64,000 nucleotides of DNA from an uncultured Planctomycetota bacterium (lineage in GTDB: Bacteria; Planctomycetota; Planctomycetia; Isosphaerales; Isosphaeraceae): the NCBI GenBank assembly GCA_963737655.1, contig CAVTTN010000002.1:6784001-6848000 (forward strand), given 5' to 3'. Position 1 is the first letter of the stretch, and every line of letters begins with the position of its first letter. Both the position numbers and the translations under genes were made by a program. Positions 1 to 12,924 of the stretch are shown here, piece by piece. The notes beneath the pieces are model-generated. The model searched no databases. It was not told the DNA's origin and saw only the letters and a program-made list of their open reading frames with translations.

Positions 1-187
1 CGGGGCGTCGCCAATGACCGGATCACGACCTCTCGGGCCAGGCTAACCTACGGGCAGGGAGCACCAAGGTGGAGACGGCCGGGAGGCCCGCGCCACACTC
101 AGGCTACGCCGCGCCGGGTCGGCGGGCAAGTCGTCCCCGACCCCCGTTCACGCCCCGTCGGGAGCGGACGAAGGCCGCAGGATGGTT
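1..187. mobile_element. 380-bp non-autonomous IS110-derived element, copy 1 (cut by window edge)
   Basis: Matches the right part of the copies at 2655, 5521 and 7159; ends GGATGGTT directly before the AAC of attC1. Confidence 0.9.
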
Positions 188-282
188 AACCTCGCGCTGC
201 AGCGGACCCGGCCCGCCGCGGCGATTTTTCTGCTATCATGGCCCTTCTCGGCGGGCCGGTCCGCTGAGCTTTGGCGTTAGGC
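184..282 (+). repeat. attC site 1
   Basis: GGTTAAC...GCTGCAGC...GCTGAGC...GTTAGGC with an internal inverted repeat. Confidence 0.9.
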
Positions 283-299
283 GGCTCGGAGGTCTGCAA

Positions 300-566
300 G
301 TGCCACGGCTTCGGTTCACTCGTGCAGAAGCTGAGGCCGAAGCCATACGATTGGCCACAGAGTTCGTCGCCGCGATGCCTGGCACTGAGTCCGCCCGATG
401 CATCGGTGCCTCCGCCGACCCCTTCACGTCGAGAAGTACAAGCAGCAAGCATCCCGTCATCTGGGCCGTTGGTTTCGTCTTTCACCCACCCGAAGTCGTG
501 ATGGACGGCGGCGAGTTGTTTGTCGGCGTTAACATCGAAACCAAGGCCGTAACAGCACATGAATAA
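300..566 (+). CDS. Cassette hypothetical protein (88 aa)
   Basis: GTG start after GGAGG just downstream of attC1; stop shortly before the next R'' box. Confidence 0.7.
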   Translation: MPRLRFTRAEAEAEAIRLATEFVAAMPGTESARCIGASADPFTSRSTSSKHPVIWAVGFVFHPPEVVMDGGELFVGVNIETKAVTAHE

Positions 567-743
567 CCGCCGTGCGACCGCCTCCCCGTGAACTCTTCGC
601 GCCGGCGGTTCGGCATCGGTTGATACTATGTGGGCATGATCATCGATCGGCCCGCATCCCCCCCGGCCCCCGCGACGACGGGGACGGCCCGATCCGGCTC
701 GGCGGGGCTTGCGGTCGGGCGCCCCGCCTCCGACCCGTCGCCC

Positions 744-2096
744 TCACGACGGCGGCGACGGCGGCGACTTCGCCACCAGCTCGTAGCCCAGCGACCTCGC
801 CTTGCGCCGCAGCGACCGCTCCTGCTTCGCGCGCACCTCGGCCTCGTACTCCGCCAGCGACCTCGACACGTACTCCTCGCCGTGCCTGAGCATCCGGTAC
901 ACCAGCCGCGACAGCTTGTGCGCCGTCGCCGTGATCGCCCCCCGGCCGCCGATCCGGCCCTTGATCCGCCGGTAGAACTGGCCCGTCGCCGTCGCCGTCC
1001 GGCCCGCCGCCTGCGCCGCCATCCGCAGCGCCTGACCCACCCGGTTCTTGCCCTTGCGGGGCGTGCGACGCCGCTCGGTCTTGTTGCTCCGGTCGGTCCG
1101 CGGGCAGAGGCCCAGCCAGCTGGCGAAGTGCTTCTCGCTCGGGAACCGCCCCACGTCGCCGCCGAGCTCGGCCAGGATCACCGTCGCCGTCGTCGCGTCG
1201 ATCCCCTCGATGGCCGTCAGGTCCACGCCGATCGCCCGGGCCAGCTTGGCCGGGGCGTCGAACCGCACGTCGTTGGCCTTGCGGCCGCGCTTGCGGGGCC
1301 TCGCCGCGATCGGCCGGCCTTCGGAGCGGTCGGGCAGGCGGTCCAGCTCCTCGGCGATCCGGGCGTCGCACTCGTCGACCTGGCGGTGGAGGTAGTGGTA
1401 CAGGTCGGACGCCTGCCTCAGGGCGAACAGGTGCTCGGGCCGCCAGGTGCCCTCCAGGGCCCGGGCGATCTCCGCCTCGTCCCGGGCGCACCGCTCGTGC
1501 CGCAGCGCGGCCAGCTTCGTGGCGTCCCGCTCGCCGGCGAGGATCGCGGCGATGATCGCCGTGCCGGTGACGCCCGTGATGCTGCTGACGACCTCGGTCA
1601 GCTTCACATTCATCTGCTCCAAAGCCTTCTGCATGTGCTGGACGTGGTGCGAGGCGTACCGCACGAGCATCTGCCGCTGCCGCCAGTAGCCGCGCAGGGC
1701 CAGGACGGCCCCGGGCGGGCGGAAGGACGGGCGGAGCAGGCCGCACGAGTGGAGGCGCTGGAGCCACTGGCAGTCGAGCCGGTCGGTCTTGGGCCGGGCG
1801 CCGCAGTGGCTGGCCTGGCTCGGCTCGATGAGGAAGACCTCGAAGCCGCGCGATTCGAGCAGCTCGAACAGGGGGATCCAGTAGACGCCGGTGGACTCCA
1901 GGACCACCGAGGTGACGCCCTCGGCCCGGAACCAATCGGCCAGGGCGTGGAGGTCGGCCGAGCAGGCGCCGAAGGTGCGGACCCGTCCGGGCCCGACGCA
2001 GGCGACGTGGTTGTCGGAGTGGACGTCGACGGCGGCGGCGTGGGGGTGGACGACCGGCAGGGACGCGTCGGGATCGGGGGGCGTGCGGCGACTCAT
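744..2096 (-). CDS. IS110-family DEDD transposase/recombinase (450 aa)
   Basis: AAVDVH, LESTGVYW and KTDRLD (DEDD RuvC-like) motifs plus C-terminal LTAIEGID...FASWLGLCP..RS motif. Confidence 0.95.
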   Translation of the reverse strand: MSRRTPPDPDASLPVVHPHAAAVDVHSDNHVACVGPGRVRTFGACSADLHALADWFRAEGVTSVVLESTGVYWIPLFELLESRGFEVFLIEPSQASHCGARPKTDRLDCQWLQRLHSCGLLRPSFRPPGAVLALRGYWRQRQMLVRYASHHVQHMQKALEQMNVKLTEVVSSITGVTGTAIIAAILAGERDATKLAALRHERCARDEAEIARALEGTWRPEHLFALRQASDLYHYLHRQVDECDARIAEELDRLPDRSEGRPIAARPRKRGRKANDVRFDAPAKLARAIGVDLTAIEGIDATTATVILAELGGDVGRFPSEKHFASWLGLCPRTDRSNKTERRRTPRKGKNRVGQALRMAAQAAGRTATATGQFYRRIKGRIGGRGAITATAHKLSRLVYRMLRHGEEYVSRSLAEYEAEVRAKQERSLRRKARSLGYELVAKSPPSPPS

Positions 2097-2130
2097 GGCG
2101 AGGGCTCCGGCGGGTGGGGGGCCAAGCCGT

Positions 2131-2295
2131 CGCGGGCCGAGAGGGGGTCCGGGGACGAGGTAGTCTCCCCGACGGGAACGTCGCGGGGCCGTGTTGACAC
2201 GGCGCCGCGGGTCACCAATGATGGGGCCACGGCCTCTCGGGCCAAGCTAACCTGCGGGCGGCGAGCACCAGGGAGATGACGGCCGGGAGGCCCGC
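2131..2295. ncRNA. Predicted bridge/seek RNA region of the IS110 element (boundaries and strand approximate)
   Basis: Non-coding region upstream of the transposase with conserved stems and two parallel modules carrying CTCCCCG (element end) and CTAACCT (attC target). Confidence 0.65.
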
Positions 2296-2363
2296 GGCGG
2301 CGACGCCGATCGTACCGCGCCCCGGTTCACGTCCGTCGGGGAGCGGTCGCAGGCCGCGCGGAG

Positions 2364-2463
2364 AGTTAACCTTGCGCTGCAGCGGACCCGGCCCGCCGCG
2401 GCGGTTTCTGGTAACATCAAGCCTTCACTCGGCGGGCCGGTCCGCTGAGCTTGGTCGTTAGGC
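2364..2463 (+). repeat. attC site 2
   Basis: AGTTAAC...GTTAGGC, same family. Confidence 0.9.
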
Positions 2464-2494
2464 GGCTCGGCAACCGGTCGAGCCGGGGAGGGGG

Positions 2495-2662
2495 ATGCGA
2501 TGCCCGTTCGGCCGTTCGCGCCTCGTCGCCGTGCCGGTCGTCGCGTCGCCGTGCCGGTCGTCGCGTCGCCGTCGGCCGCGCCCCGCGTCGTCGCCGCCCG
2601 GGGTGGCGCGCGTGGTCGCCGCCGGCGGTCGTGCCCCGCGCGGTCGCGCCGCCTCTTCGTGA
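2495..2662 (+). pseudogene. Small, probably decayed cassette ORF with a 20-bp tandem duplication
   Basis: ATG after a G-rich RBS; GTCGCCGTGCCGGTCGTCGC x2 at 2525-2564; stop TGA supplied by the inserted element. Confidence 0.35.
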
Positions 2663-3034
2663 ACTCTTTGGCTGGGAACGGCCATCGACGCGCGACACTA
2701 CCCCAACCCCAGGCTTTGTGGCCGGGCAGCGGCGAGGTCCGGGTAGCAAACCGACGGATTCAAGAGCGGCGGACGAGGCGCGGGCCGAGAGGGGAGTCGG
2801 TTACGTTTGCAGTCTCTTCGACGGGAACATCCCCGCGAGTCGGCTCGCGGGGCGTCGCCAATGACCGGATCACGACCTCTCGGGCCAGGCTAACCTACGG
2901 GCAGGGAGCACCAAGGTGGAGACGGCCGGGAGGCCCGCGCCACACTCAGGCTACGCCGCGCCGGGTCGGCGGGCAAGTCGTCCCCGACCCCCGTTCACGC
3001 CCCGTCGGGAGCGGACGAAGGCCGCAGGATGGTT
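2655..3034. mobile_element. 380-bp non-autonomous IS110-derived element, copy 2
   Basis: CTTCGTGAACTC...GGATGGTT between CGCCT and AACCT; homologous to the IS non-coding region; no transposase. Confidence 0.9.
2778..2940. ncRNA. Predicted bridge/seek RNA region in the 380-bp element (shared by the other copies)
   Basis: Modules CTCTTCG-ACGGGA...TCGCCA (2814) and CTAACCT-ACGGGC...GCACCA (2890); hairpin CCCCGCGAG/CTCGCGGGG. Confidence 0.6.
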
Positions 3035-3129
3035 AACCTCGCGCTGCAGCGGACCCCACCCGCCGCATCGGTTTCTGGTAGATTCAAGGTCGCTCGTGCG
3101 GGTGGGTCCGCTGAGCTTGGCCGTTAGGC
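3031..3129 (+). repeat. attC site 3
   Basis: GGTTAAC...GTTAGGC. Confidence 0.9.
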
Positions 3130-3360
3130 GGCTCAGGAGTCGAAGCCTTCGGTCGTGCTCGTCGTCGGCCTCGCCGGTCGCGCCTCGGCTCGACGACGCC
3201 ATCGGTCGGGCCCCTGGAGTCGGCCTCGGCGGTGGTGCGCGTCGTCGCCCTCGCCGGCCGCGCCCCCGAGGTCGGGCCCGTCGGCCGGCGCCCCCTTGCC
3301 AACGCCGTCGGTCCGTGCCAGGATCGTCGGTGTCGGCGCGTGGGGCGTCGCCGGGGCGCC

Positions 3361-3460
3361 GCCTAACCCGGCGCTGCAGCGGACCCGGCCCGCGGTCGAC
3401 GATCACTCTCCTCTCAATCTCGCCGGGCGCGGGCCGGTCCGCTGAGCTTTGTCGTTAGGC
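3361..3460 (+). repeat. attC site 4 (uninterrupted; closes a ~230-bp cassette with no convincing ORF)
   Basis: GCCTAAC...GTTAGGC. Confidence 0.92.
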
Positions 3461-3485
3461 GTATTAGGTCGATCGGAGGCTCTGG

Positions 3486-3896
3486 ATGCGCAGTAGAGTC
3501 CGCTATGTCAGTGGTTTGCTATCGCTGTCCGTGCTGATCTTTACCTCGTGCAGCCCGGAGCGACCGGCGGGCAGCGAGGCGGACGCGTGGCCATCCGACC
3601 AAGAGATCCTCGCCTACCTCGATGGCAAGACGATTTTCGAGCCCACGCCTGCCTCATCGGAGAAGGGAGGTAGTGTACCCCCGAAATCCTTCTTGCTGAA
3701 GGCAGGCAACATTTCCTCCTTGGAAGTGAAGAAGTCGGGGGTTGCTGTCTCGGGCGAGCCTTGGACGACGCCGATCCATTTCATCCTCGACGAGGGGGGG
3801 CGTAAATATGCCGTTGATGCCAGCGTCGATCACCGGAAAGTCGATAATAAACGGGCCTTCTTCGGGCTCAAGGCCGAGCGCATCGCTGAGCAGTGA
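3486..3896 (+). CDS. Cassette-encoded putative lipoprotein
   Basis: GGAGG RBS, basic/hydrophobic leader and lipobox-like FTSC. Confidence 0.8.
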   Translation: MRSRVRYVSGLLSLSVLIFTSCSPERPAGSEADAWPSDQEILAYLDGKTIFEPTPASSEKGGSVPPKSFLLKAGNISSLEVKKSGVAVSGEPWTTPIHFILDEGGRKYAVDASVDHRKVDNKRAFFGLKAERIAEQ

Positions 3897-3897
3897 C

Positions 3898-3998
3898 GCC
3901 TAACCTCGCGCTGCAGCGGACCCCGGCCACGGGCCGCGCTCCCTCTTCCCTCAAGCTCACTGGTCCGTGGCCGGGTCCGCTGAGCTTTGGCGTTAGGC
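3898..3998 (+). repeat. attC site 5 (uninterrupted)
   Basis: GCCTAAC...GTTAGGC. Confidence 0.92.
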
Positions 3999-4014
3999 GG
4001 CAGAGGAGATTGGG

Positions 4015-4545
4015 ATGACCACCTCACCCCGTGACCGCATGCGGATGATCGTCGGCGATATCACGACACTAGCCGTCGACGCCGTCGTCACGGCCGCCAA
4101 TGAGTCCCTCCTCGGCGGCGGGGGAGTCGATGGCGCCATCCACCGAGCCGCCGGCCCCGGGTTGCTCGACGAGTGCCGCACCCTGGGGATCTGCAACGAG
4201 GGCGAGGCGAAGATCAGCGGCGCCTATCGCCTGCCCGCCAAATACATCATCCATACCGTCGGGCCGGTCTGGGAGGGCGGCCACTACGATGAGGTCGGCA
4301 CCTTGCGGCGGTGCTACAGGGCCTGCCTGGAATTGGCGGAGGGGCGCGGCGTCGAGTCGATCGCCTTCCCATGCGTCGCCACGGGCGTCTACGAGTTCCC
4401 GAAGGACCTGGCCTGCGAGGTCGCCGTCGACGCCGTGCGCGAATGGCTGTCGGACCACGACCTCCCGAAGCAGGTGGTCTTCTGCTGCTTCGAGGAGTCG
4501 GATGCCGCGCTGTACCGTGACCGCCTCTCCGCGGCCATCGCCTAA
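4015..4545 (+). CDS. Macro domain protein (YmdB-like O-acetyl-ADP-ribose deacetylase)
   Basis: GDIT, AANESLLGGGGVDGAIHRAAG, IIHTVGP and SIAFPCVATGVY motifs; stop TAA inside R''. Confidence 0.93.
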   Translation: MTTSPRDRMRMIVGDITTLAVDAVVTAANESLLGGGGVDGAIHRAAGPGLLDECRTLGICNEGEAKISGAYRLPAKYIIHTVGPVWEGGHYDEVGTLRRCYRACLELAEGRGVESIAFPCVATGVYEFPKDLACEVAVDAVREWLSDHDLPKQVVFCCFEESDAALYRDRLSAAIA

Positions 4546-4638
4546 CCTGGCGCTGCAGCGGACCCGGCCCGCCGCGGTAGTTTCCGTGCTATCATCGGTC
4601 TGCTCGGCGGGCCGGTCCGCTGAGCTTGGTCGTTAGGC
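4540..4638 (+). repeat. attC site 6 (uninterrupted)
   Basis: GCCTAAC...GTTAGGC. Confidence 0.92.
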
Positions 4639-4661
4639 TCCGAAGTCGGAAGGTGAGTGCG

Positions 4662-5528
4662 ATGCAACAAGCTTCACAACCAAACGCGATGCAGCAACCC
4701 ATAAAGGAGTTGCTCAAGGCGATAGCCGAACAGTCGAATCCGAAGCAACTCAGGGAAGCCTTATTCGAAAAGCGGTTGCTGGCGCGGGCCTTCGCCATCT
4801 GCCCGGATGCGGAACAAGCCGCGAAGTTAACGGACATCGTGTTCAAGCGACTCAGCGACTTGGATAAACAAGTTGAATTGGCACGGGCTGAATGGGACGA
4901 ATTCAAGAACAAGGCATGCACAGACTGGAAGAGGGTCCGAGCGGAGATCGAACACGAGAATCTGCTCATCAATCACCGTTTGGGATGGTTATTTACCTCA
5001 CAGATTTTCCTGCTCGGAGGTTTTGCGGCGGTCTTTCAGGCTTCTCTCAAGGAGAACCTACTCACCAGTTCGCTCCCAGTCCAGGTTGTATTATTAGCGA
5101 TATCAGTCGTCGCCGTTTCAATTTGTGCATTTGTGACTGCTTCTGTCGATGCAGCTCATAAACAGATTGAATTCTTGGAGAATTGGTGGTTCGCTCACTA
5201 CCTGAGCAAAAAACTGAAAATGATGGATATCTTCTGCGTCGAAAAATTGACAGATCACCCTCCAATCAACGGTATTTTTGATGAATGGTTGTACACTATC
5301 CTAAGTACGAAATGGATGCCAGTACCGATCGCTCTAGGCTGGCTCGCCTTGATGTCTGCAGTATTCTTTGAGAAGATTTTGAAGATCGAGCAGCCTGTTG
5401 TCCCAACGGTTGCCTCGACCACCGTCGTGTTTGGGCTGGGTGTCGGGCTCTTCTATTTTGCGACGTTGCGGCGCAAGCGTCCGAATCGCAAAGTTGGTTC
5501 CTGGAAAGAGCCCGCCGCCTCTTCGTGA
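4662..5528 (+). CDS. Cassette membrane protein (4 predicted TM), possibly RipA-like family
   Basis: Visibly lower GC; IEHENLLINHRLGWLFTSQ motif followed by hydrophobic helices; family call from recall only. Confidence 0.7.
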   Translation: MQQASQPNAMQQPIKELLKAIAEQSNPKQLREALFEKRLLARAFAICPDAEQAAKLTDIVFKRLSDLDKQVELARAEWDEFKNKACTDWKRVRAEIEHENLLINHRLGWLFTSQIFLLGGFAAVFQASLKENLLTSSLPVQVVLLAISVVAVSICAFVTASVDAAHKQIEFLENWWFAHYLSKKLKMMDIFCVEKLTDHPPINGIFDEWLYTILSTKWMPVPIALGWLALMSAVFFEKILKIEQPVVPTVASTTVVFGLGVGLFYFATLRRKRPNRKVGSWKEPAASS

Positions 5529-5900
5529 ACTCTTTGGCTGGGAACGGCCATCGACGCGCGACACTACCCCAACCCCAGGCTTTGTGGCCGGGCAGCGGCG
5601 AGGTCCGGGTAGCAAACCGACGGATTCAAGAGCGGCGGACGAGGCGCGGGCCGAGAGGGGAGTCGGTTACGCTTGCAGTCTCTTCGACGGGAACATCCCC
5701 GCGAGTCGGCTCGCGGGGCGTCGCCAATGACCGGATCACGACCTCTCGGGCCAGGCTAACCTACGGGCAGGGAGCACCAAGGTGGAGACGGCCGGGAGGC
5801 CCGCGCCACACTCAGGCTACGCCGCGCCGGGTCGGCGGGCAAGTCGTCCCCGACCCCCGTTCACGCCCCGTCGGGAGCGGACGAAGGCCGCAGGATGGTT
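5521..5900. mobile_element. 380-bp non-autonomous IS110-derived element, copy 3
   Basis: One visible difference from copy 2 (TTACGCTTGC vs TTACGTTTGC); same insertion point. Confidence 0.9.
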
Positions 5901-5997
5901 AACCTCGCGCTGCAGCGGACCCCGGCCACGGGTTACGTTTTCTCTTCTCCCAAGCTCACCGGTCCGTGGCCGGGTCCGCTGAGCTTGGTCGTTAGGC
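5897..5997 (+). repeat. attC site 7
   Basis: GGTTAAC...GTTAGGC. Confidence 0.9.
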
Positions 5998-6021
5998 GGC
6001 TTTCCCCGGTGAGGCCGACTC

Positions 6022-6420
6022 GTGCGCATCAGCATCCCACGCCTCCCGGTCGCGCTCGTCATCCGAGCGGATCGGCGGCCCCGACGGCCGATCAAGCCGA
6101 GGTTCACCCTTCGTGGCATGATGCTTGCCGTGCTCGTCGTCGGGCTGGTGCTCGCGCTGTCGCTCCACGCGGCGAGGTTGCAACGGGCTGGCAACGACCA
6201 TGCGGCGCGAGCGGTCCTGCTCGCCCCGGGCGCCGGCACGATGCCTCCGGTCGTGGGCTGGCACAACGCGAGGGCGAACGCCCTCTTCGCGGCCGCCTGG
6301 CGCTGGCACATGGCGGTCACCACGCTCGTTGTCAGCTCGGCCGCCTTGGGGTGTATCGCGGCCATCGGCCGGTGCGTCGCTTCTGCGCCCCGGCCCTACG
6401 GTGGGTCGGAAGGCGCCTGA
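6022..6420 (+). CDS. Cassette membrane protein with RFTLRGMM leader motif
   Basis: ORF fills the cassette; stop TGA in R''; two hydrophobic segments; start uncertain. Confidence 0.65.
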   Translation: MRISIPRLPVALVIRADRRPRRPIKPRFTLRGMMLAVLVVGLVLALSLHAARLQRAGNDHAARAVLLAPGAGTMPPVVGWHNARANALFAAAWRWHMAVTTLVVSSAALGCIAAIGRCVASAPRPYGGSEGA

Positions 6421-6512
6421 CCTCGCGCTGCAGCGGACCCCGCACCGCCGCGGCGCTTTCTCTGCTACCATGTCGTTGTTCGGCGGTGCGGGTCCGCTCA
6501 GCTTGGGCGTTA
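6415..6512 (+). repeat. attC site 8 (R'' GCCTGAC; R' split by a MITE)
   Basis: GTTA at 6509-6512 continues as GGC at 6661 after the insertion. Confidence 0.85.
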
Positions 6513-6658
6513 TTGCCCTTCAGGTTGTCCGGTTCCGGACGATCCCCGGGTGGCCGGGGGCTCGTCCGCGAGACCCCGGTCCCGCGGGGTCGGCCGACCG
6601 GGGTCTCGCCGGCGAGCCCCCGGCCACCCGGACAGGAACCCAACAATCTGAAGGTCAA
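6513..6658. mobile_element. 146-bp palindromic MITE with TA target-site duplication
   Basis: TIR TTGCCCTTCAGGTTGT / ACAATCTGAAGGTCAA (14/16), internal perfect 19- and 13-bp stems, TA at 6511-6512 and 6659-6660. Confidence 0.8.
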
Positions 6659-6685
6659 TAGGCACACTCACACACGGCATCACGC

Positions 6686-7147
6686 ATGAGCACAGGAAAC
6701 ACAAAAGCCGTCAGAGATTCCGAGACGTGCTGGGAACTTGATGAAGAGTTCATGTTGTATGCCGCGACCATTCCAGACCCGCCGAAGGCGGGTGCGGCCA
6801 CGACGGTGAGGCTCACGCATCGGAGCTCCTGCGGCCCGTTCGACTTCGCTGAATTTTTCGTTCGTGTAGGAAACTCGGCCAAGTCGAACGCCCCGCGCGA
6901 TTCGGATTCGACGACAGATTGGATTCAGGCGCGATTGGTCGAGGAGTTGGTCACCGTCGCTGAGGAAGAGATGCATCGTTCAGAGGCGCAAGAGCCTTTC
7001 GATGACGAGACACTTTGGATCGGGACTTACGAGGCCGACTTAATCTTTCCCGTCGGGCAGAGTTCCATCGAGATCAAGATCGTCAGCCAAGAGCCAGAGA
7101 TGCTCGGGTCATTCGTGCTGACGGACTGGGAGGTGACGGTTGGATGA
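6686..7147 (+). CDS. Cassette hypothetical acidic protein (153 aa)
   Basis: ORF fills the cassette between attC8 and the next R''. Confidence 0.75.
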   Translation: MSTGNTKAVRDSETCWELDEEFMLYAATIPDPPKAGAATTVRLTHRSSCGPFDFAEFFVRVGNSAKSNAPRDSDSTTDWIQARLVEELVTVAEEEMHRSEAQEPFDDETLWIGTYEADLIFPVGQSSIEIKIVSQEPEMLGSFVLTDWEVTVG

Positions 7148-7158
7148 GCCGTGCGCCT

Positions 7159-7538
7159 CTTCGTGAACTCTTTGGCTGGGAACGGCCATCGACGCGCGAC
7201 ACTACCCCAACCCCAGGCTTTGTGGCCGGGCAGCGGCGAGGTCCGGGTAGCAAACCGACGGATTCAAGAGCGGCGGACGAGGCGCGGGCCGAGAGGGGAG
7301 TCGGTTACGCTTGCAGTCTCTTCGACGGGAACATCCCCGCGAGTCGGCTCGCGGGGCGTCGCCAATGACCGGATCACGACCTCTCGGGCCAGGCTAACCT
7401 ACGGGCAGGGAGCACCAAGGTGGAGACGGCCGGGAGGCCCGCGCCACACTCAGGCTACGCCGCGCCGGGTCGGCGGGCAAGTCGTCCCCGACCCCCGTTC
7501 ACGCCCCGTCGGGAGCGGACGAAGGCCGCAGGATGGTT
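7159..7538. mobile_element. 380-bp non-autonomous IS110-derived element, copy 4
   Basis: Appears identical to copy 3; same insertion point. Confidence 0.9.
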
Positions 7539-7634
7539 AACCTCGCGCTGCAGCGGACCCCACACCGCCGCGGCGCTTTTTCTGCTATCATGCCTGTCTC
7601 GGCGGTGCGGGTCCGCTGAGCTTGGTCGTTAGGC
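7535..7634 (+). repeat. attC site 9
   Basis: GGTTAAC...GTTAGGC. Confidence 0.9.
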
Positions 7635-7644
7635 GGCTCTCCCT

Positions 7645-7953
7645 TTGGGCGTCGAGGATCATACGTTCTCTGTGCGAATCGTCTCCATCGAGCGACTCCG
7701 CCTGCGGAATGGGTCGTCGCTGCTCCTCCTTGGCCTCGACATGACGTACCTTCAAGCGGCGCGGTCTGGTTGTCCGGGTGCCAAGGCACGCGTCGTATCC
7801 GGCGATGCCGTCACGCCAGTCCGGGGCACCCTGGCCTTTCAGCAACCACTCGACAGCCTCGCGACCGTGAGCGTATCTTCACCTGAGTCGATCATCGTCG
7901 CTGTCGGCGACACGTTCGAGTTCGAGCGAGCCGACCCCGCCGCCTCCCCGTGA
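7645..7953 (+). CDS. Cassette hypothetical protein (~100 aa)
   Basis: ORF fills the cassette; in frame with the former R'' TAA; start uncertain. Confidence 0.55.
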   Translation: MGVEDHTFSVRIVSIERLRLRNGSSLLLLGLDMTYLQAARSGCPGAKARVVSGDAVTPVRGTLAFQQPLDSLATVSVSSPESIIVAVGDTFEFERADPAASP

Positions 7954-8593
7954 ACTCTTCGCGCCGGCGGTTCGGCATCGGTTGATACTATGTGGGCGTG
8001 ATCATCGATCGGCCCGCATCCCCCCCGGCCCCCGCGACGACGGGGACGGCCCGATCCGGCTCGGCGGGGCTTGCGGTCGGGCGCCCCGCCTCCGACCCGT
8101 CGCCCTCACGACGGCGGCGACGGCGGCGACTTCGCCACCAGCTCGTAGCCCAGCGACCTCGCCTTGCGCCGCAGCGAACGCTCCTGCTTCCGCCTCACCT
8201 CCGCCTCGTACTCCGCCAGCGACCTCGACACGTACTCCTCGCCGTGCCTGAGCAGCCGGTACACCAGCCGCGACAGCTTGTGCGCCGTCGCCGTGATCGC
8301 CCCGCGGCCGCCGATCCGGCCCTTGATCCGCCGGGGGGTCAAAAAGGGGACGGGGGGTCAAAAAGGGGACGGAGCGAATAAATTCAGCTTTTTGCATTTT
8401 GCCGCGTCTCATCCAGGCCGAACTTATTCGCTCCGTCCCCTTTTCGGCCCCAAGCTAACCTGCGGGCGGCGAGCACCAGGGAAGGGACGGCCGGGAGGCT
8501 CGCGACGGCGTGCCCCAGCGTATCGCGCCCGGTGGTCGGGGCCACCCCCGGTTCACGTCCGTCGGGGAGCGGTCGGAGACGGCGCGGAGAGTT
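7946..8593 (-). mobile_element. Internally deleted IS110 copy (transposase 3' remnant plus both ends)
   Basis: 7946-8333 nearly identical to 584-971; 8445-8593 is a diverged version of the IS right end; transposase C-terminal remnant at 8106-8333. Confidence 0.88.
8332..8444. repeat. REP-like palindromic unit at the IS deletion junction
   Basis: 19-bp tandem CGGGGGGTCAAAAAGGGGA x2 and perfect 21-bp IR AAAAGGGGACGGAGCGAATAA (8361-8381 / 8424-8444). Confidence 0.85.
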
Positions 8594-8689
8594 AACCTGG
8601 CGCGGCAGCGGACCCCGCACCACCGCGACGCCTCTTGTGTTATCATGGCCCACTCGGCGGAGCGGGTCCGCTGAGCTTTGGTATCAGGC
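8590..8689 (+). repeat. attC site 10 (degenerate R' ATCAGGC)
   Basis: AGTTAAC, L boxes and stem conserved; GTT mutated. Confidence 0.8.
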
Positions 8690-8715
8690 GGCTCGCACTT
8701 CCGAGGGGCACACCG

Positions 8716-9066
8716 ATGACCTTGCCTGGTCGCCTCCGCCCTCGTTGGACCATCGGGCGCTGCATGATCGGCGTCGCGGTCTCAGCCCTTGCGCTCTCCG
8801 GGCCGTTGCAATTCCTCCTCGTGGCCCTGACTGTCTCCTTCATGCTCCTCATGAGGCTCGGCTTTTCCTGGGTGAAGGCGCTGATGGCGGTCGAAGTGAT
8901 GGGCGCCATCGCGATCGCCCTCGGACTGCCGTTCTTCGTCACCGCCCTACGCTCCAATTGTGGCATGCCCGCGTCTGGGCCGACTAACCTCGCGGTGCGG
9001 GGGACCCGTCCCGCCGTTGTGCGTTCTCCGCTCTCATGGCGATCGCTCGGCGGGCCGGTCCGCTGA
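8716..9066 (+). CDS. Cassette membrane protein with RWTIGRCM leader; reads into attC11 (possibly frameshifted)
   Basis: GAGG RBS, hydrophobic segments; R'' TAA is out of frame. Confidence 0.55.
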   Translation: MTLPGRLRPRWTIGRCMIGVAVSALALSGPLQFLLVALTVSFMLLMRLGFSWVKALMAVEVMGAIAIALGLPFFVTALRSNCGMPASGPTNLAVRGTRPAVVRSPLSWRSLGGPVR

Positions 9067-9081
9067 GCGTTCGCGTTCGGC
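8982..9081 (+). repeat. attC site 11 (diverged)
   Basis: GACTAAC...GGTCCGCTGAGC...GTTCGGC. Confidence 0.8.
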
Positions 9082-9093
9082 CCCACGGAGGCG

Positions 9094-9432
9094 GTGATGC
9101 AGAAGGCTGGTGTCTGGCTTCTGACGATCATCGGCCTGGTCGGGCTGTTGGTGGCCCTCAGCTTCGAAGGGCATGGCGCGGGCGCCTCGACCCCTCAGCC
9201 GGGAGGACCGGTGCACGTGGCGCCGGTCGTCTGGCCAGTCGGCCTGCCCGATACCTGGCTGGAGTGGGAGAGGCCCGGATACCTGTTGGGGCAGGAGGGC
9301 CGCCCCCATGTCCACTTCGCCGGCGTGTATGTCCTCAGATGGTCGTTCGGAATCCTCGTCGCGAGCGCCTGCGCCCTGGGCTGCGCGTCGATTCTGGCTC
9401 GCCGCGGGCAATCCGGCCGGATCGGGGGCTAA
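9094..9432 (+). CDS. Cassette membrane protein (112 aa)
   Basis: GGAGG RBS, N- and C-terminal hydrophobic segments, stop in R''. Confidence 0.75.
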   Translation: MMQKAGVWLLTIIGLVGLLVALSFEGHGAGASTPQPGGPVHVAPVVWPVGLPDTWLEWERPGYLLGQEGRPHVHFAGVYVLRWSFGILVASACALGCASILARRGQSGRIGG

Positions 9433-9526
9433 CCTCGCGCTGCTGCGGACCCCGCACCGCCGCGCCCCCTTCTGCGAGATCTTCGTCGATTCGGCGGTGA
9501 GGGTCCGATGAGCTTTGTCGTTAGGC
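9427..9526 (+). repeat. attC site 12
   Basis: GGCTAAC...GTTAGGC. Confidence 0.88.
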
Positions 9527-9558
9527 GGCGGGGGGATCCACCCAGGGGGGAACCGAGG

Positions 9559-9966
9559 GTGGTGCGGCGATCCTGGCGGAGTTTGCGGGCGATTCTGGTC
9601 GCCATAGCCGTCGCGGCCGTCGCGATGAACGGCCTGCGTGAACTTCCCACGTTGCGAGATGGCTATCTCCTTCGGCAAGGGGCGGGTCGTGCCCGGCGTG
9701 ATGTCGAGTTGATCGGCGCGGCCTCGGGTCTCGATTCCGCCGCCGGTCGCAGGGCAGTGCTCAATGCCCATCAGGCCCAAGTCCGAGCCAATGCGTTCTG
9801 GCGGGAGAATCTTCCCGGACTGGCCGTCCTGGCGTGCGGCGCGGCGGCCGGTCTCCGGCTCCTGGGGCTGGCCTTCGGGGGCCTCTCGCCAGCCTTCGAC
9901 AGGCGAATCGGCGCGGTCGAACATCGCCGGAGTCCACCGCCTGACCTCTCGCGACCGCTCTCGTAA
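9559..9966 (+). CDS. Cassette membrane protein
   Basis: WRSLRAILVAIAV leader and a second hydrophobic segment; start uncertain. Confidence 0.55.
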   Translation: MVRRSWRSLRAILVAIAVAAVAMNGLRELPTLRDGYLLRQGAGRARRDVELIGAASGLDSAAGRRAVLNAHQAQVRANAFWRENLPGLAVLACGAAAGLRLLGLAFGGLSPAFDRRIGAVEHRRSPPPDLSRPLS

Positions 9967-10015
9967 AATCGAACGTCGCTCGGGCGGGTGGGTCCGCTGA
10001 GCCTGGTCGTTAGGC
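9939..10015 (+). repeat. attC site 13 (left arm deleted, 77 bp)
   Basis: GCCTGAC...GGGTCCGCTGAGC..GTTAGGC; GCTGCAGCGGACC arm missing. Confidence 0.7.
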
Positions 10016-10034
10016 GGCTCATCCGGAGGCGAAT

Positions 10035-11166: not shown

Positions 11167-12924
<1,758 letters not shown>

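Follow-up and report, generated by a model that had tools for sequence, protein, structure and literature searches.

The stretch of DNA considered here, hereafter the window, comprises 64,000 nucleotides (nt) from an uncultured Isosphaeraceae bacterium (assembly GCA_963737655.1, contig CAVTTN010000002.1, positions 6,784,001-6,848,000). A chromosomal integron cassette array, which reads on the plus strand, occupies window 1-10020, and two kinds of mobile elements are lodged in its attC sites: a full insertion sequence (IS) of the IS110 family and a 380-base-pair (bp) element that carries no transposase gene. Each of them has a non-coding segment with two parallel modules, and each module contains a heptamer that is found again either in the attC site or at the element's own end. 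As discussed below, these segments are very probably two homologous genes for a bridge RNA (also called seekRNA) that belong to one IS110-family lineage, are encoded on the minus strand, and carry one guide for the attC target and another for the end of the element.

Two elements in the attC sites of a chromosomal integron

The attC sites of the array have the form GCCTAACC..GCAGCGGACC....GGTCCGCTGAGC..GTTAGGC, and an integron integrase gene is found directly upstream of the array (C2:6777135-6778073; TIGR02249, 474.6 bits with a cut-off of 265). The full IS and the short element share their insertion point, which lies between ..NCT and AACC in every copy, and they are always in a single orientation relative to attC (36 copies). 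The corresponding features of the window are listed in Table 1.

The recombinase encoded by the IS, with 450 amino acids (aa), is a distant match to the IS621 transposase 8wt6 (E 1.5e-10). Immediately upstream of its gene there is a long non-coding region of about 270 nt, and the IS has short sub-terminal inverted repeats, CGTGAAC and GTTCACG. The short element, for its part, is composed of a left end with the RNA gene, which together span about 260 nt and share 70-75% identity with the IS, a spacer of about 60 nt and a right end of about 60 nt; the last 20 or so nt of this far end are alike in both elements. No transposase match was obtained on any of the 28 short copies of the genome.

Genome-wide, there are six full copies of the IS (three about 100% and three about 96.5% identical), all at the same attC position, in addition to two partial ones. 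As for the 28 short copies, identity to the copy in the window reaches 98% or more in 25 and is 88-95% in three. The end reads CT-CCCCGTGAAC in the eight IS copies (six full, two partial) and CT-CTTCGTGAAC in all the short ones. Module B contains CTCCCCG in the seven IS copies that retain it, and CTCTTCG in the 28 short copies; a regular expression recognized 24 of the latter, while the other four differ only in neighboring bases, as seen in the alignment. Module A, by contrast, contains CTAACCT in all copies of both elements.

The twin modules and the ends that match them had been noticed before, in a reading of the window alone (the original prediction), and this observation is confirmed. 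The three heptamers had been placed correctly in modules and junctions (Table 1), and CTAACCT is indeed retained in the deleted IS copy, near 8455. The alignment also bears out that the two elements have different sequences in the inner hairpin, which nevertheless pairs in both.

Table 1. Features of the two elements and their copies in the window (junctions are given without strand).
Feature	Position in window	Strand	Basis
Full IS, IS110 family, 1,784 bp including one ambiguous T at 2367	584..2367	-	Flanks and ends read; attC split GCCT / AACC
Transposase/recombinase gene, 450 aa	744..2096	-	PF01548 E 1.9e-17, PF02371 E 5.9e-18
Predicted IS bridge-RNA scaffold: S0, target arm (S1 + hairpin A), donor arm (S2 + hairpin B)	2126..2301	-	Alignment, pair counts, model R1
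Putative IS target guide AGGUUAG (CTAACCT on the plus strand) = attC left half + AG	2247..2253	-	
Putative IS donor guide CGGGGAG (CTCCCCG on the plus strand) = last 5 nt of the transposase-distal end + AG	2165..2171	-	
Junction of IS transposase-distal end and attC, CT + CCCCG on the plus strand; the donor guide spells this DNA	582..588	.	
Junction of IS bridge-RNA-proximal end and attC, TAACCT on the plus strand; the target guide spells this half-site	2367..2372	.	
380-bp transposase-less element in the next attC, same position and orientation as the IS	2655..3034	-	
Predicted short-element bridge-RNA scaffold	2774..2944	-	Alignment, pair counts, R1
Putative short-element target guide AGGUUAG (CTAACCT on the plus strand)	2890..2896	-	
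Putative short-element donor guide CGAAGAG (CTCTTCG on the plus strand)	2814..2820	-	
Junction of short-element right end and attC, CT + CTTCG; spelled by its own donor guide	2653..2659	.	
Short-element copy cut off by the window start	1..187	-	
Short-element copy	5521..5900	-	
Short-element copy	7159..7538	-	
IS copy with internal deletion: both ends and target module kept; donor module and most of the transposase gene lost	7946..8593	-	

The predicted RNA scaffold, its strand and its guides

A scan of one genome per species yielded a set of 79 homologous loci, with recombinases that are 41-84% identical. A strict regular expression recognized twin modules that precede the transposase gene and share its sense in 48 of 81 loci, that is, the 79 that were fetched plus the two window elements. 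The first module has the pattern ...UGGUGC-loop-GCCCG-N-[N5 AG]-C(A/U)UGG... and the second ...UGGUGAC-hairpin-CCCG-N-[N5 AG]-A(C/U)U.... Among 28 guide types, the N5 stretch is highly variable in the first module, with 24 values, and more conserved in the second, with 12. In an alignment of 30 non-identical examples there are 25 invariant columns, which include both UGGUG, both CCCG and both AG motifs.

Five helices were proposed for this RNA: a closing stem (S0), a stem that closes the target loop (S1), hairpin A (UGG-GC/GCCCG), a stem that closes the donor loop (S2) and hairpin B (UGG-GA/UCCCG). RNAalifold recovered three of them from the raw MAFFT alignment; the other two were added by hand and then tested. 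Over 30 sequences and 33 pairs, 86.2% of the 972 cells are paired, compared with 78.3% in shuffled alignments, and none of 500 shuffles reached the observed value. When the partners are slid by 1-3 columns, pairing falls to 37.8-53.0%. Changes on both sides of a pair were observed in 20 of the 33 pairs, and S2 varies on both sides at all seven of its pairs. Hairpins A and B are nearly invariant and, consequently, carry little evidential weight by themselves.

The strand of the RNA can be read from the same data. In the conserved helices there are 177 G.U cells versus 33 A.C cells, and pairing is 86.2% in the minus-strand sense as opposed to 71.4% on the opposite strand; the helices of the IS itself form 33 of 33 pairs on the minus strand and 30 of 33 on the plus strand. 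A covariance model of 120 positions, called R1, was made from the core of the alignment. In the 79 related loci it produced 79 matches, all of them in the transposase sense, and it matched 75 of these loci (L104, L109, L122 and L123 gave none, and four loci gave two each). In the genome of the window, its 35 matches correspond to the 28 short copies and seven IS copies, and to nothing else. Within the window, R1 matches the minus strand at 2162-2287 in the IS, with 89.3 bits, and at 2811-2930 in the short element, with 91.1 bits; the latter compares with a range of 87.2-90.1 bits over the IS copies. The excess of G.U pairs, the better pairing and the sense of all model matches thus indicate that the RNA is read from the minus strand of the window. 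On these structural grounds, the predicted bridge RNA is encoded on the recombinase strand and not on the plus strand, to which the original prediction had given a slight preference.

In the RNA sense, the heptamers are AGGUUAG for the target, CGGGGAG for the donor of the IS and CGAAGAG for the donor of the short element. The recombinase gene was used to fix the orientation: the attC half that adjoins the RNA-proximal end is AGGTT-A, and the recombinase-distal end is ...GTTCACGGGG followed by AG. Both guides repeat the top-strand sequence, one that of the left target (LT) plus AG and the other that of the left donor (LD) plus AG, so they would pair with the bottom strand. As the base between CCCG and the heptamer is usually mismatched, the guides appear to be 7 nt long. 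The original prediction had written the modules as CT-N5 and pointed to the CT core of IS621. In the RNA sense the guides are N5 plus AG, and it is AG, not the CT of IS621, that they share.

The rule that guides spell ends was tested on other genomes only, with guides read from the model alignment. There were 78 hits with both guides, and the 74 that lie at most 400 nt upstream of a recombinase match were used. These represent 41 guide-pair types, 34 of which have enough flank for the target and 32 for the donor. In 28 of 32 types (54 of 63 copies), the donor heptamer is found again no more than 450 nt past the transposase gene, versus 43 of 1162 trials (3.7%) with swapped guides. Similarly, a stretch of 100 nt ahead of the RNA gene contains the first six bases of the target guide for 23 of 34 types (43 of 64 copies), versus 20 of 1345 trials (1.5%) in the swapped-guide control. 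The guide matches are at a fixed distance, and the donor match is always preceded by GTT(C/A/T)(A/C). This model-based count replaces an earlier one, in which L083, a locus with only 10 nt upstream, had matched its own guide. The window elements obey the rule in all copies. The proposal that the heptamers are target and donor guides is therefore supported in other genomes far above the level of swapped guides, and the two-base change that is matched between guide and end, initially seen only between the two elements of the window, becomes one instance of a family-wide rule. Covariation among homologs, which the original prediction had named as a test, is thus observed both in the scaffold and between guides and ends.

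The dinucleotide itself is not the same in all members. AG is present at the right junction in all copies and, in most other family members, at both junctions. AA replaces AG in both guides of L075-L079, L081, L102, L120, L133 and L134, as if the shared dinucleotide had changed in the two loops together, and it does so in the target loop only in L064, L072 and L100.

The occupancy of attC sites also bears on the target guide. A two-part attC pattern detected 58 sites in the genome; three of them have no recognizable TAAC box, and the remaining 55 were classed. This pattern is incomplete, as it caught 21 of the 28 short copies. The 29 occupied sites (eight with the IS and 21 with the short element) all have TAACCT, while the 26 empty ones have TAACCC (13), TAACCT (nine) or TGACCT (four). 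In other words, 29 of 38 TAACCT sites are occupied, in contrast to none of the 17 that have one of the variants TAACCC and TGACCT (Fisher p 4.6e-8). These variants differ from TAACCT at bases covered by the target guide, and TAACCC would produce an A.C mismatch at its first base. Other attC clusters of the genome (near 0.29, 1.67, 1.97, 4.67, 4.85 and 5.88 Mb) are without an integrase match above the cut-off.

Several observations weigh against the interpretation of these segments as bridge RNAs with a target and a donor guide. The closing stem S0 is the weakest helix, with 71.5% pairing. Folds of single sequences are no better than those of shuffles for either element: on the minus strand z is -1.21 and -1.16, and on the plus strand -0.65 and -0.26. 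Rfam gave no match, whether at the gathering score over the whole window or with E up to 1 over 2050-3060, and a search for public RNA runs came back empty. In the test of the guides, 11 of 34 target types and four of 32 donor types are without an exact match. Kinship and duplicated cassettes inflate the occupancy statistic. In addition, the joint change of guide and end inside this genome, which affects two adjacent bases, counts as a single event, so the statistical weight comes from the homologs. In the clade of the window, moreover, the left junction is LT5-AA-C and the right one LD5-AG, although both guides end in AG; thus, the shared dinucleotide is not identical at the two junctions. 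Judging by its bases, a donor AA can pair with a guide that ends in AG through a G.T wobble.

To these points must be added that right-hand guides were not found, either by row-shuffled complementarity stripes or by the subsequent comparison of longest runs. The stripe search covered 20 of the 30 rows; in the other ten, junctions were lacking or inexact. The 5′ side of the donor loop has no excess complementarity to the left end (mean run of 3.77 versus 3.93). The 5′ side of the target loop, with nine variable nt, has a modest excess toward the right target (mean longest run of 3.17 versus 2.67, with runs of at least 5 in 21% versus 7%). In the window elements, the only right-hand pairing seen is a possible CCU opposite AGG. 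The 5′ stretch of the target loop is unconserved in the members that target attC, and the right flank is cassette-specific beyond GC; recognition of the right side may consequently be minimal. Hand comparisons of three stretches with the left end, namely the 5′ side of the donor loop, the 5 nt before CCCG and the 3′ extension, were dropped because their registers were inconsistent.

Taken with these reservations, the proposed bridge RNA would work as follows. Each RNA, of about 175 nt, would fold into a closing stem and two arms, and each arm would have an internal loop closed distally by a UGGUG...CCCG hairpin. One spacer base past this conserved hairpin, the 7-nt guide (N5 plus AG) would begin. 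AGGUUAG, the guide of the first arm, would pair with CTAACCT on the plus strand of the attC R'' box, thereby defining the insertion point GCCT|AACC. The guide of the second arm would pair with the last five bases of the transposase-distal end and the shared dinucleotide; the IS has CGGGGAG as this guide, and the short element CGAAGAG. By homology to IS621, ISEc21 and ISKpn4, the RNA-bound 450-aa DEDD recombinase would then recombine the joined element ends with attC. The short element would have lost the recombinase gene and kept a full bridge-RNA gene, with matching changes in its donor guide and its end.

The short element and the competing explanations

The short element has several traits of a miniature inverted-repeat transposable element (MITE): the transposase gene is absent, its ends are homologous to those of an autonomous element, and it has many copies at different sites. 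Its 28 copies carry 26 distinct left flanks of 16 nt. This diversity, together with the near-identity of 25 copies, suggests that the element is mobile now or was so recently. It derives by internal deletion from a related IS and not from the resident one. The autonomous parent was not found in this genome, and three further copies in a genome of the same genus (G080) run to contig ends. The recombinase of the resident IS is the only one of its lineage in the genome; another, single-copy gene with PF01548 (G000:C2:4847083-4848520) encodes a protein that is 33% identical and has no adjoining R1 match. This second gene is located 1.8 kb from a diverged copy of the short element.

Relatives of the short element are present in other genomes. 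G080 contains an 83%-identical copy, inserted in attC, with identical guides and ends. In L061, a contig from a metagenome-assembled genome whose IS recombinase is 84% identical, a recombinase-less relative of 383 bp (1831-2213) abuts the right end of the IS exactly; its donor guide, UGAAGAG, matches its own end, TGAAGAG. Compared with the window element, the inner hairpin has a two-sided pair change in L061 and a G.U change in G080. The R1 score on a par with that of the IS, the two relatives and the changes in the hairpin indicate that the RNA gene of the short element has been maintained.

Some further variants are worth describing. In the L061 relative, the stretch of the target guide, ACGG-UU-GGAG, equals the end of the neighboring IS plus AG (ACGGGGAG) except for two extra U; the element may be aimed at the junction of its helper, or the IS may have landed beside the element. 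L152 (G031:C264), from a different genus, is also recombinase-less and has an R1 match at 1484-1609 with the common donor code UGGGGAG. A second occurrence of this heptamer, with GAGTTCG before it, is found 242 nt past the RNA gene, which puts the length of the whole element at roughly 480 bp. Finally, in three diverged short copies (G000:C2:1975830, 1979320 and 4850309) CGGUG replaces UGGUG in both modules, so that the U.G pair that closes each hairpin, otherwise invariant, has become C-G in the two hairpins together.

It is somewhat more probable than its contrary, although by inference, that the short element is moved in trans by the recombinase of the resident IS, loaded with the short element's own RNA. 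A broader reading falls a little short of even chances: the 380-bp elements could form a lineage that parasitizes a bridge recombinase by means of RNA alone, with a target loop that copies the attC address of the helper and a donor loop re-coded to fit the ends of the parasite itself, such that a helper recombinase loaded with their RNA would move the parasite and not the helper. This reading has to be seen in the context of a short lineage that persists across genomes beside the helper lineage and outnumbers the helper by 28 to 6. Together, both elements fill about three quarters of the matching attC sites that were detected, and they split each R'' box.

The pairing between guides and ends is asymmetric in a way that opens an alternative. 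The guide of the short element cannot pair with the end of the IS, as this would need two A.C mismatches. In the opposite direction, CGGGGAG of the IS could pair with the short end's bottom strand, 3'-GCTTCTC-5', through two rG.dT wobbles, and the short element may hence not need an RNA of its own. This possible two-wobble pairing speaks against the use of a dedicated RNA, and so does a preprint on ISPpu10, in which activity is reported to survive single wobbles at some guide positions (10.64898/2026.03.19.712850). The short element would then be moved with the bridge RNA of the resident IS, and its own RNA gene would be dispensable, a relic or a competitor. Nonetheless, that gene obtains as good a score with the family model as its counterpart in the IS, it is kept with the same guides in the 83%-identical copy of the other genome, its inner hairpin shows the two-sided and G.U changes mentioned above, and in two variants, CGAAGAG and TGAAGAG, the donor guide of the short lineage follows the element's own end, all of which make this alternative unlikely. 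It is, in turn, quite improbable that the copies were spread by an autonomous CGAAGAG parent, now lost, and are inert here today. The genome does lack a full-length IS with a CGAAGAG donor guide, as all seven IS-borne RNA genes have CGGGGAG, and the RNA region of the short element is only about 70-75% identical to that of the IS. Yet at least 98% identity to the window copy in 25 of 28 copies points to recent spread, and the family-invariant scaffold positions are the same in both RNAs; furthermore, with an assembly that is 87.7% complete, the parent could simply be unassembled.

Two other explanations concern the RNA as such, and both are far less plausible. The internal heptamers could be copies of ends and targets at the level of DNA, protein-binding sites or relics of nested insertions, with no guide RNA involved, and the sub-terminal inverted repeats of the IS would fit with this. 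Such an origin is very improbable given that the heptamers occupy fixed positions in a scaffold whose helices covary, with many G.U pairs on one strand only, that the protein is homologous to bridge recombinases, and that the target heptamer takes 24 distinct values in the first set, changing freely from one insertion site to another. That the RNA is instead read from the plus strand, antisense to the transposase, seems hardly credible: the single-sequence fold of that strand is more stable in absolute energy, and the IS, although not the short element, has a sigma-70-like site there (TTGACA-17 nt-AATGAT, 10/12, at 2194-2222), but the pairing of the helices, the ratio of G.U to A.C cells and the sense of the 79 model matches all favor the minus strand. 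The sigma-70-like site itself lies in the hairpin of the IS donor arm; it could be an antisense promoter like that described for ISPpu9, or a product of chance.

Relation to known bridge-RNA elements

Bridge RNAs, known since 2024, are established for IS110 and IS1111 elements (PMC11208160; PMC11187229). As predicted here, the system of the window elements resembles that of IS621 (PMC11208160) in many respects. Both have a DEDD recombinase with PF01548 and PF02371, and an RNA of about 175 nt that is encoded on the strand of the recombinase gene, upstream of it in the long non-coding end. In both, a variable first loop spells the left target plus the shared dinucleotide, and a more conserved second loop the left donor plus the same dinucleotide. 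The two guides pair with the bottom strand, and the polarity of left-target and left-donor guides is the same. By contrast with the IS621 layout given there, the guides are here 3′ of the conserved UGGUG...CCCG distal hairpin and directly after it, the shared dinucleotide is AG instead of CT, and the two arms are joined by a closing stem. The proteins differ as well: that of the window has 450 aa, compared with 328 in the solved IS621 chain, and the similarity is weak (E 1.5e-10).

With ISKpn4 and ISPst6, the IS1111-attC elements (PMC11187229), the window elements share RNA-guided insertion, if the reading above is correct, in one orientation and at one position of integron attC sites. As in IS1111-type seekRNAs in the same source, the top-strand guide, if present here, would precede the bottom-strand one. 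Nevertheless, in that text the long non-coding region of the IS1111-attC elements is downstream of the gene, whereas here it is upstream. Unlike IS1111 proteins, with 330-350 aa, the 450-aa protein is within the range of 395-455 given there for the IS110 subgroup. The host is, in addition, a GC-rich environmental bacterium with a chromosomal integron.

A parallel for the short element is provided by MITEPpu9 and ISPpu9 of Pseudomonas putida (PMC12288879). MITEPpu9 is also a small transposase-less element with IS110-type ends, found both next to the IS and apart from it, which is thought to use the transposase of the IS and has an AG dinucleotide at the crossover. It carries a small RNA gene, ssr9, that is reported to be unnecessary for transposition and is treated there apart from the bridge RNA. 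The short element described here differs from it in having a complete bridge-RNA homolog with its own donor code, and in outnumbering the IS by 28 to 6. A mirror case, noted in a 2026 preprint, is that of elements of about 800 bp that have a recombinase gene and lack the 5′ region, which suggests RNA supplied in trans; non-coding repeat units stacked beside IS110 genes are mentioned in the same text (10.64898/2026.08.14.744561). In another preprint, 86 covariance models of diverse bridge RNAs are reported (10.64898/2026.10.21.760802), and the RNA family of the window may already be among them. No description of a recombinase-less element with its own re-coded bridge RNA was found in the literature searched. 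The IS is, in sum, a further member of the known bridge-RNA kind with an unusual layout, and the RNA-carrying, re-coded mini element is the less ordinary part.

If the short element is active, it would offer natural evidence that a bridge RNA works in trans and that donor loops are re-coded in nature. It would also mean that one recombinase serves two donor codes in one cell, which is useful for the design of multiplexed bridge editing. In such a two-code case, the asymmetry of pairing matters, as the short guide is excluded from the IS end while the IS guide might wobble-pair with the short end. For integron biology, the relevant figure is that 29 of the 55 classed attC sites carry one of these elements inside the R'' box.

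Two minor features of the window can also be recorded. A foreign sequence of about 115 bp, with inverted ends (GGGGACGGAGCGAATAA...TTATTCGCTCCGTCCCC) as well as a doubled GGGGGTCAAAAAGGGGACGG, is inserted in the deleted IS copy at 8330-8450. The genome has three places with near-full copies of this insert, and two of these are in deleted IS copies. Outside the array, window 12117-12585 consists of a long run of 9- and 12-nt units (CCCATGCCGCC, CCCATACCACC) in two blocks, which would encode a Gly/Met-rich repeat if the minus strand is coding.

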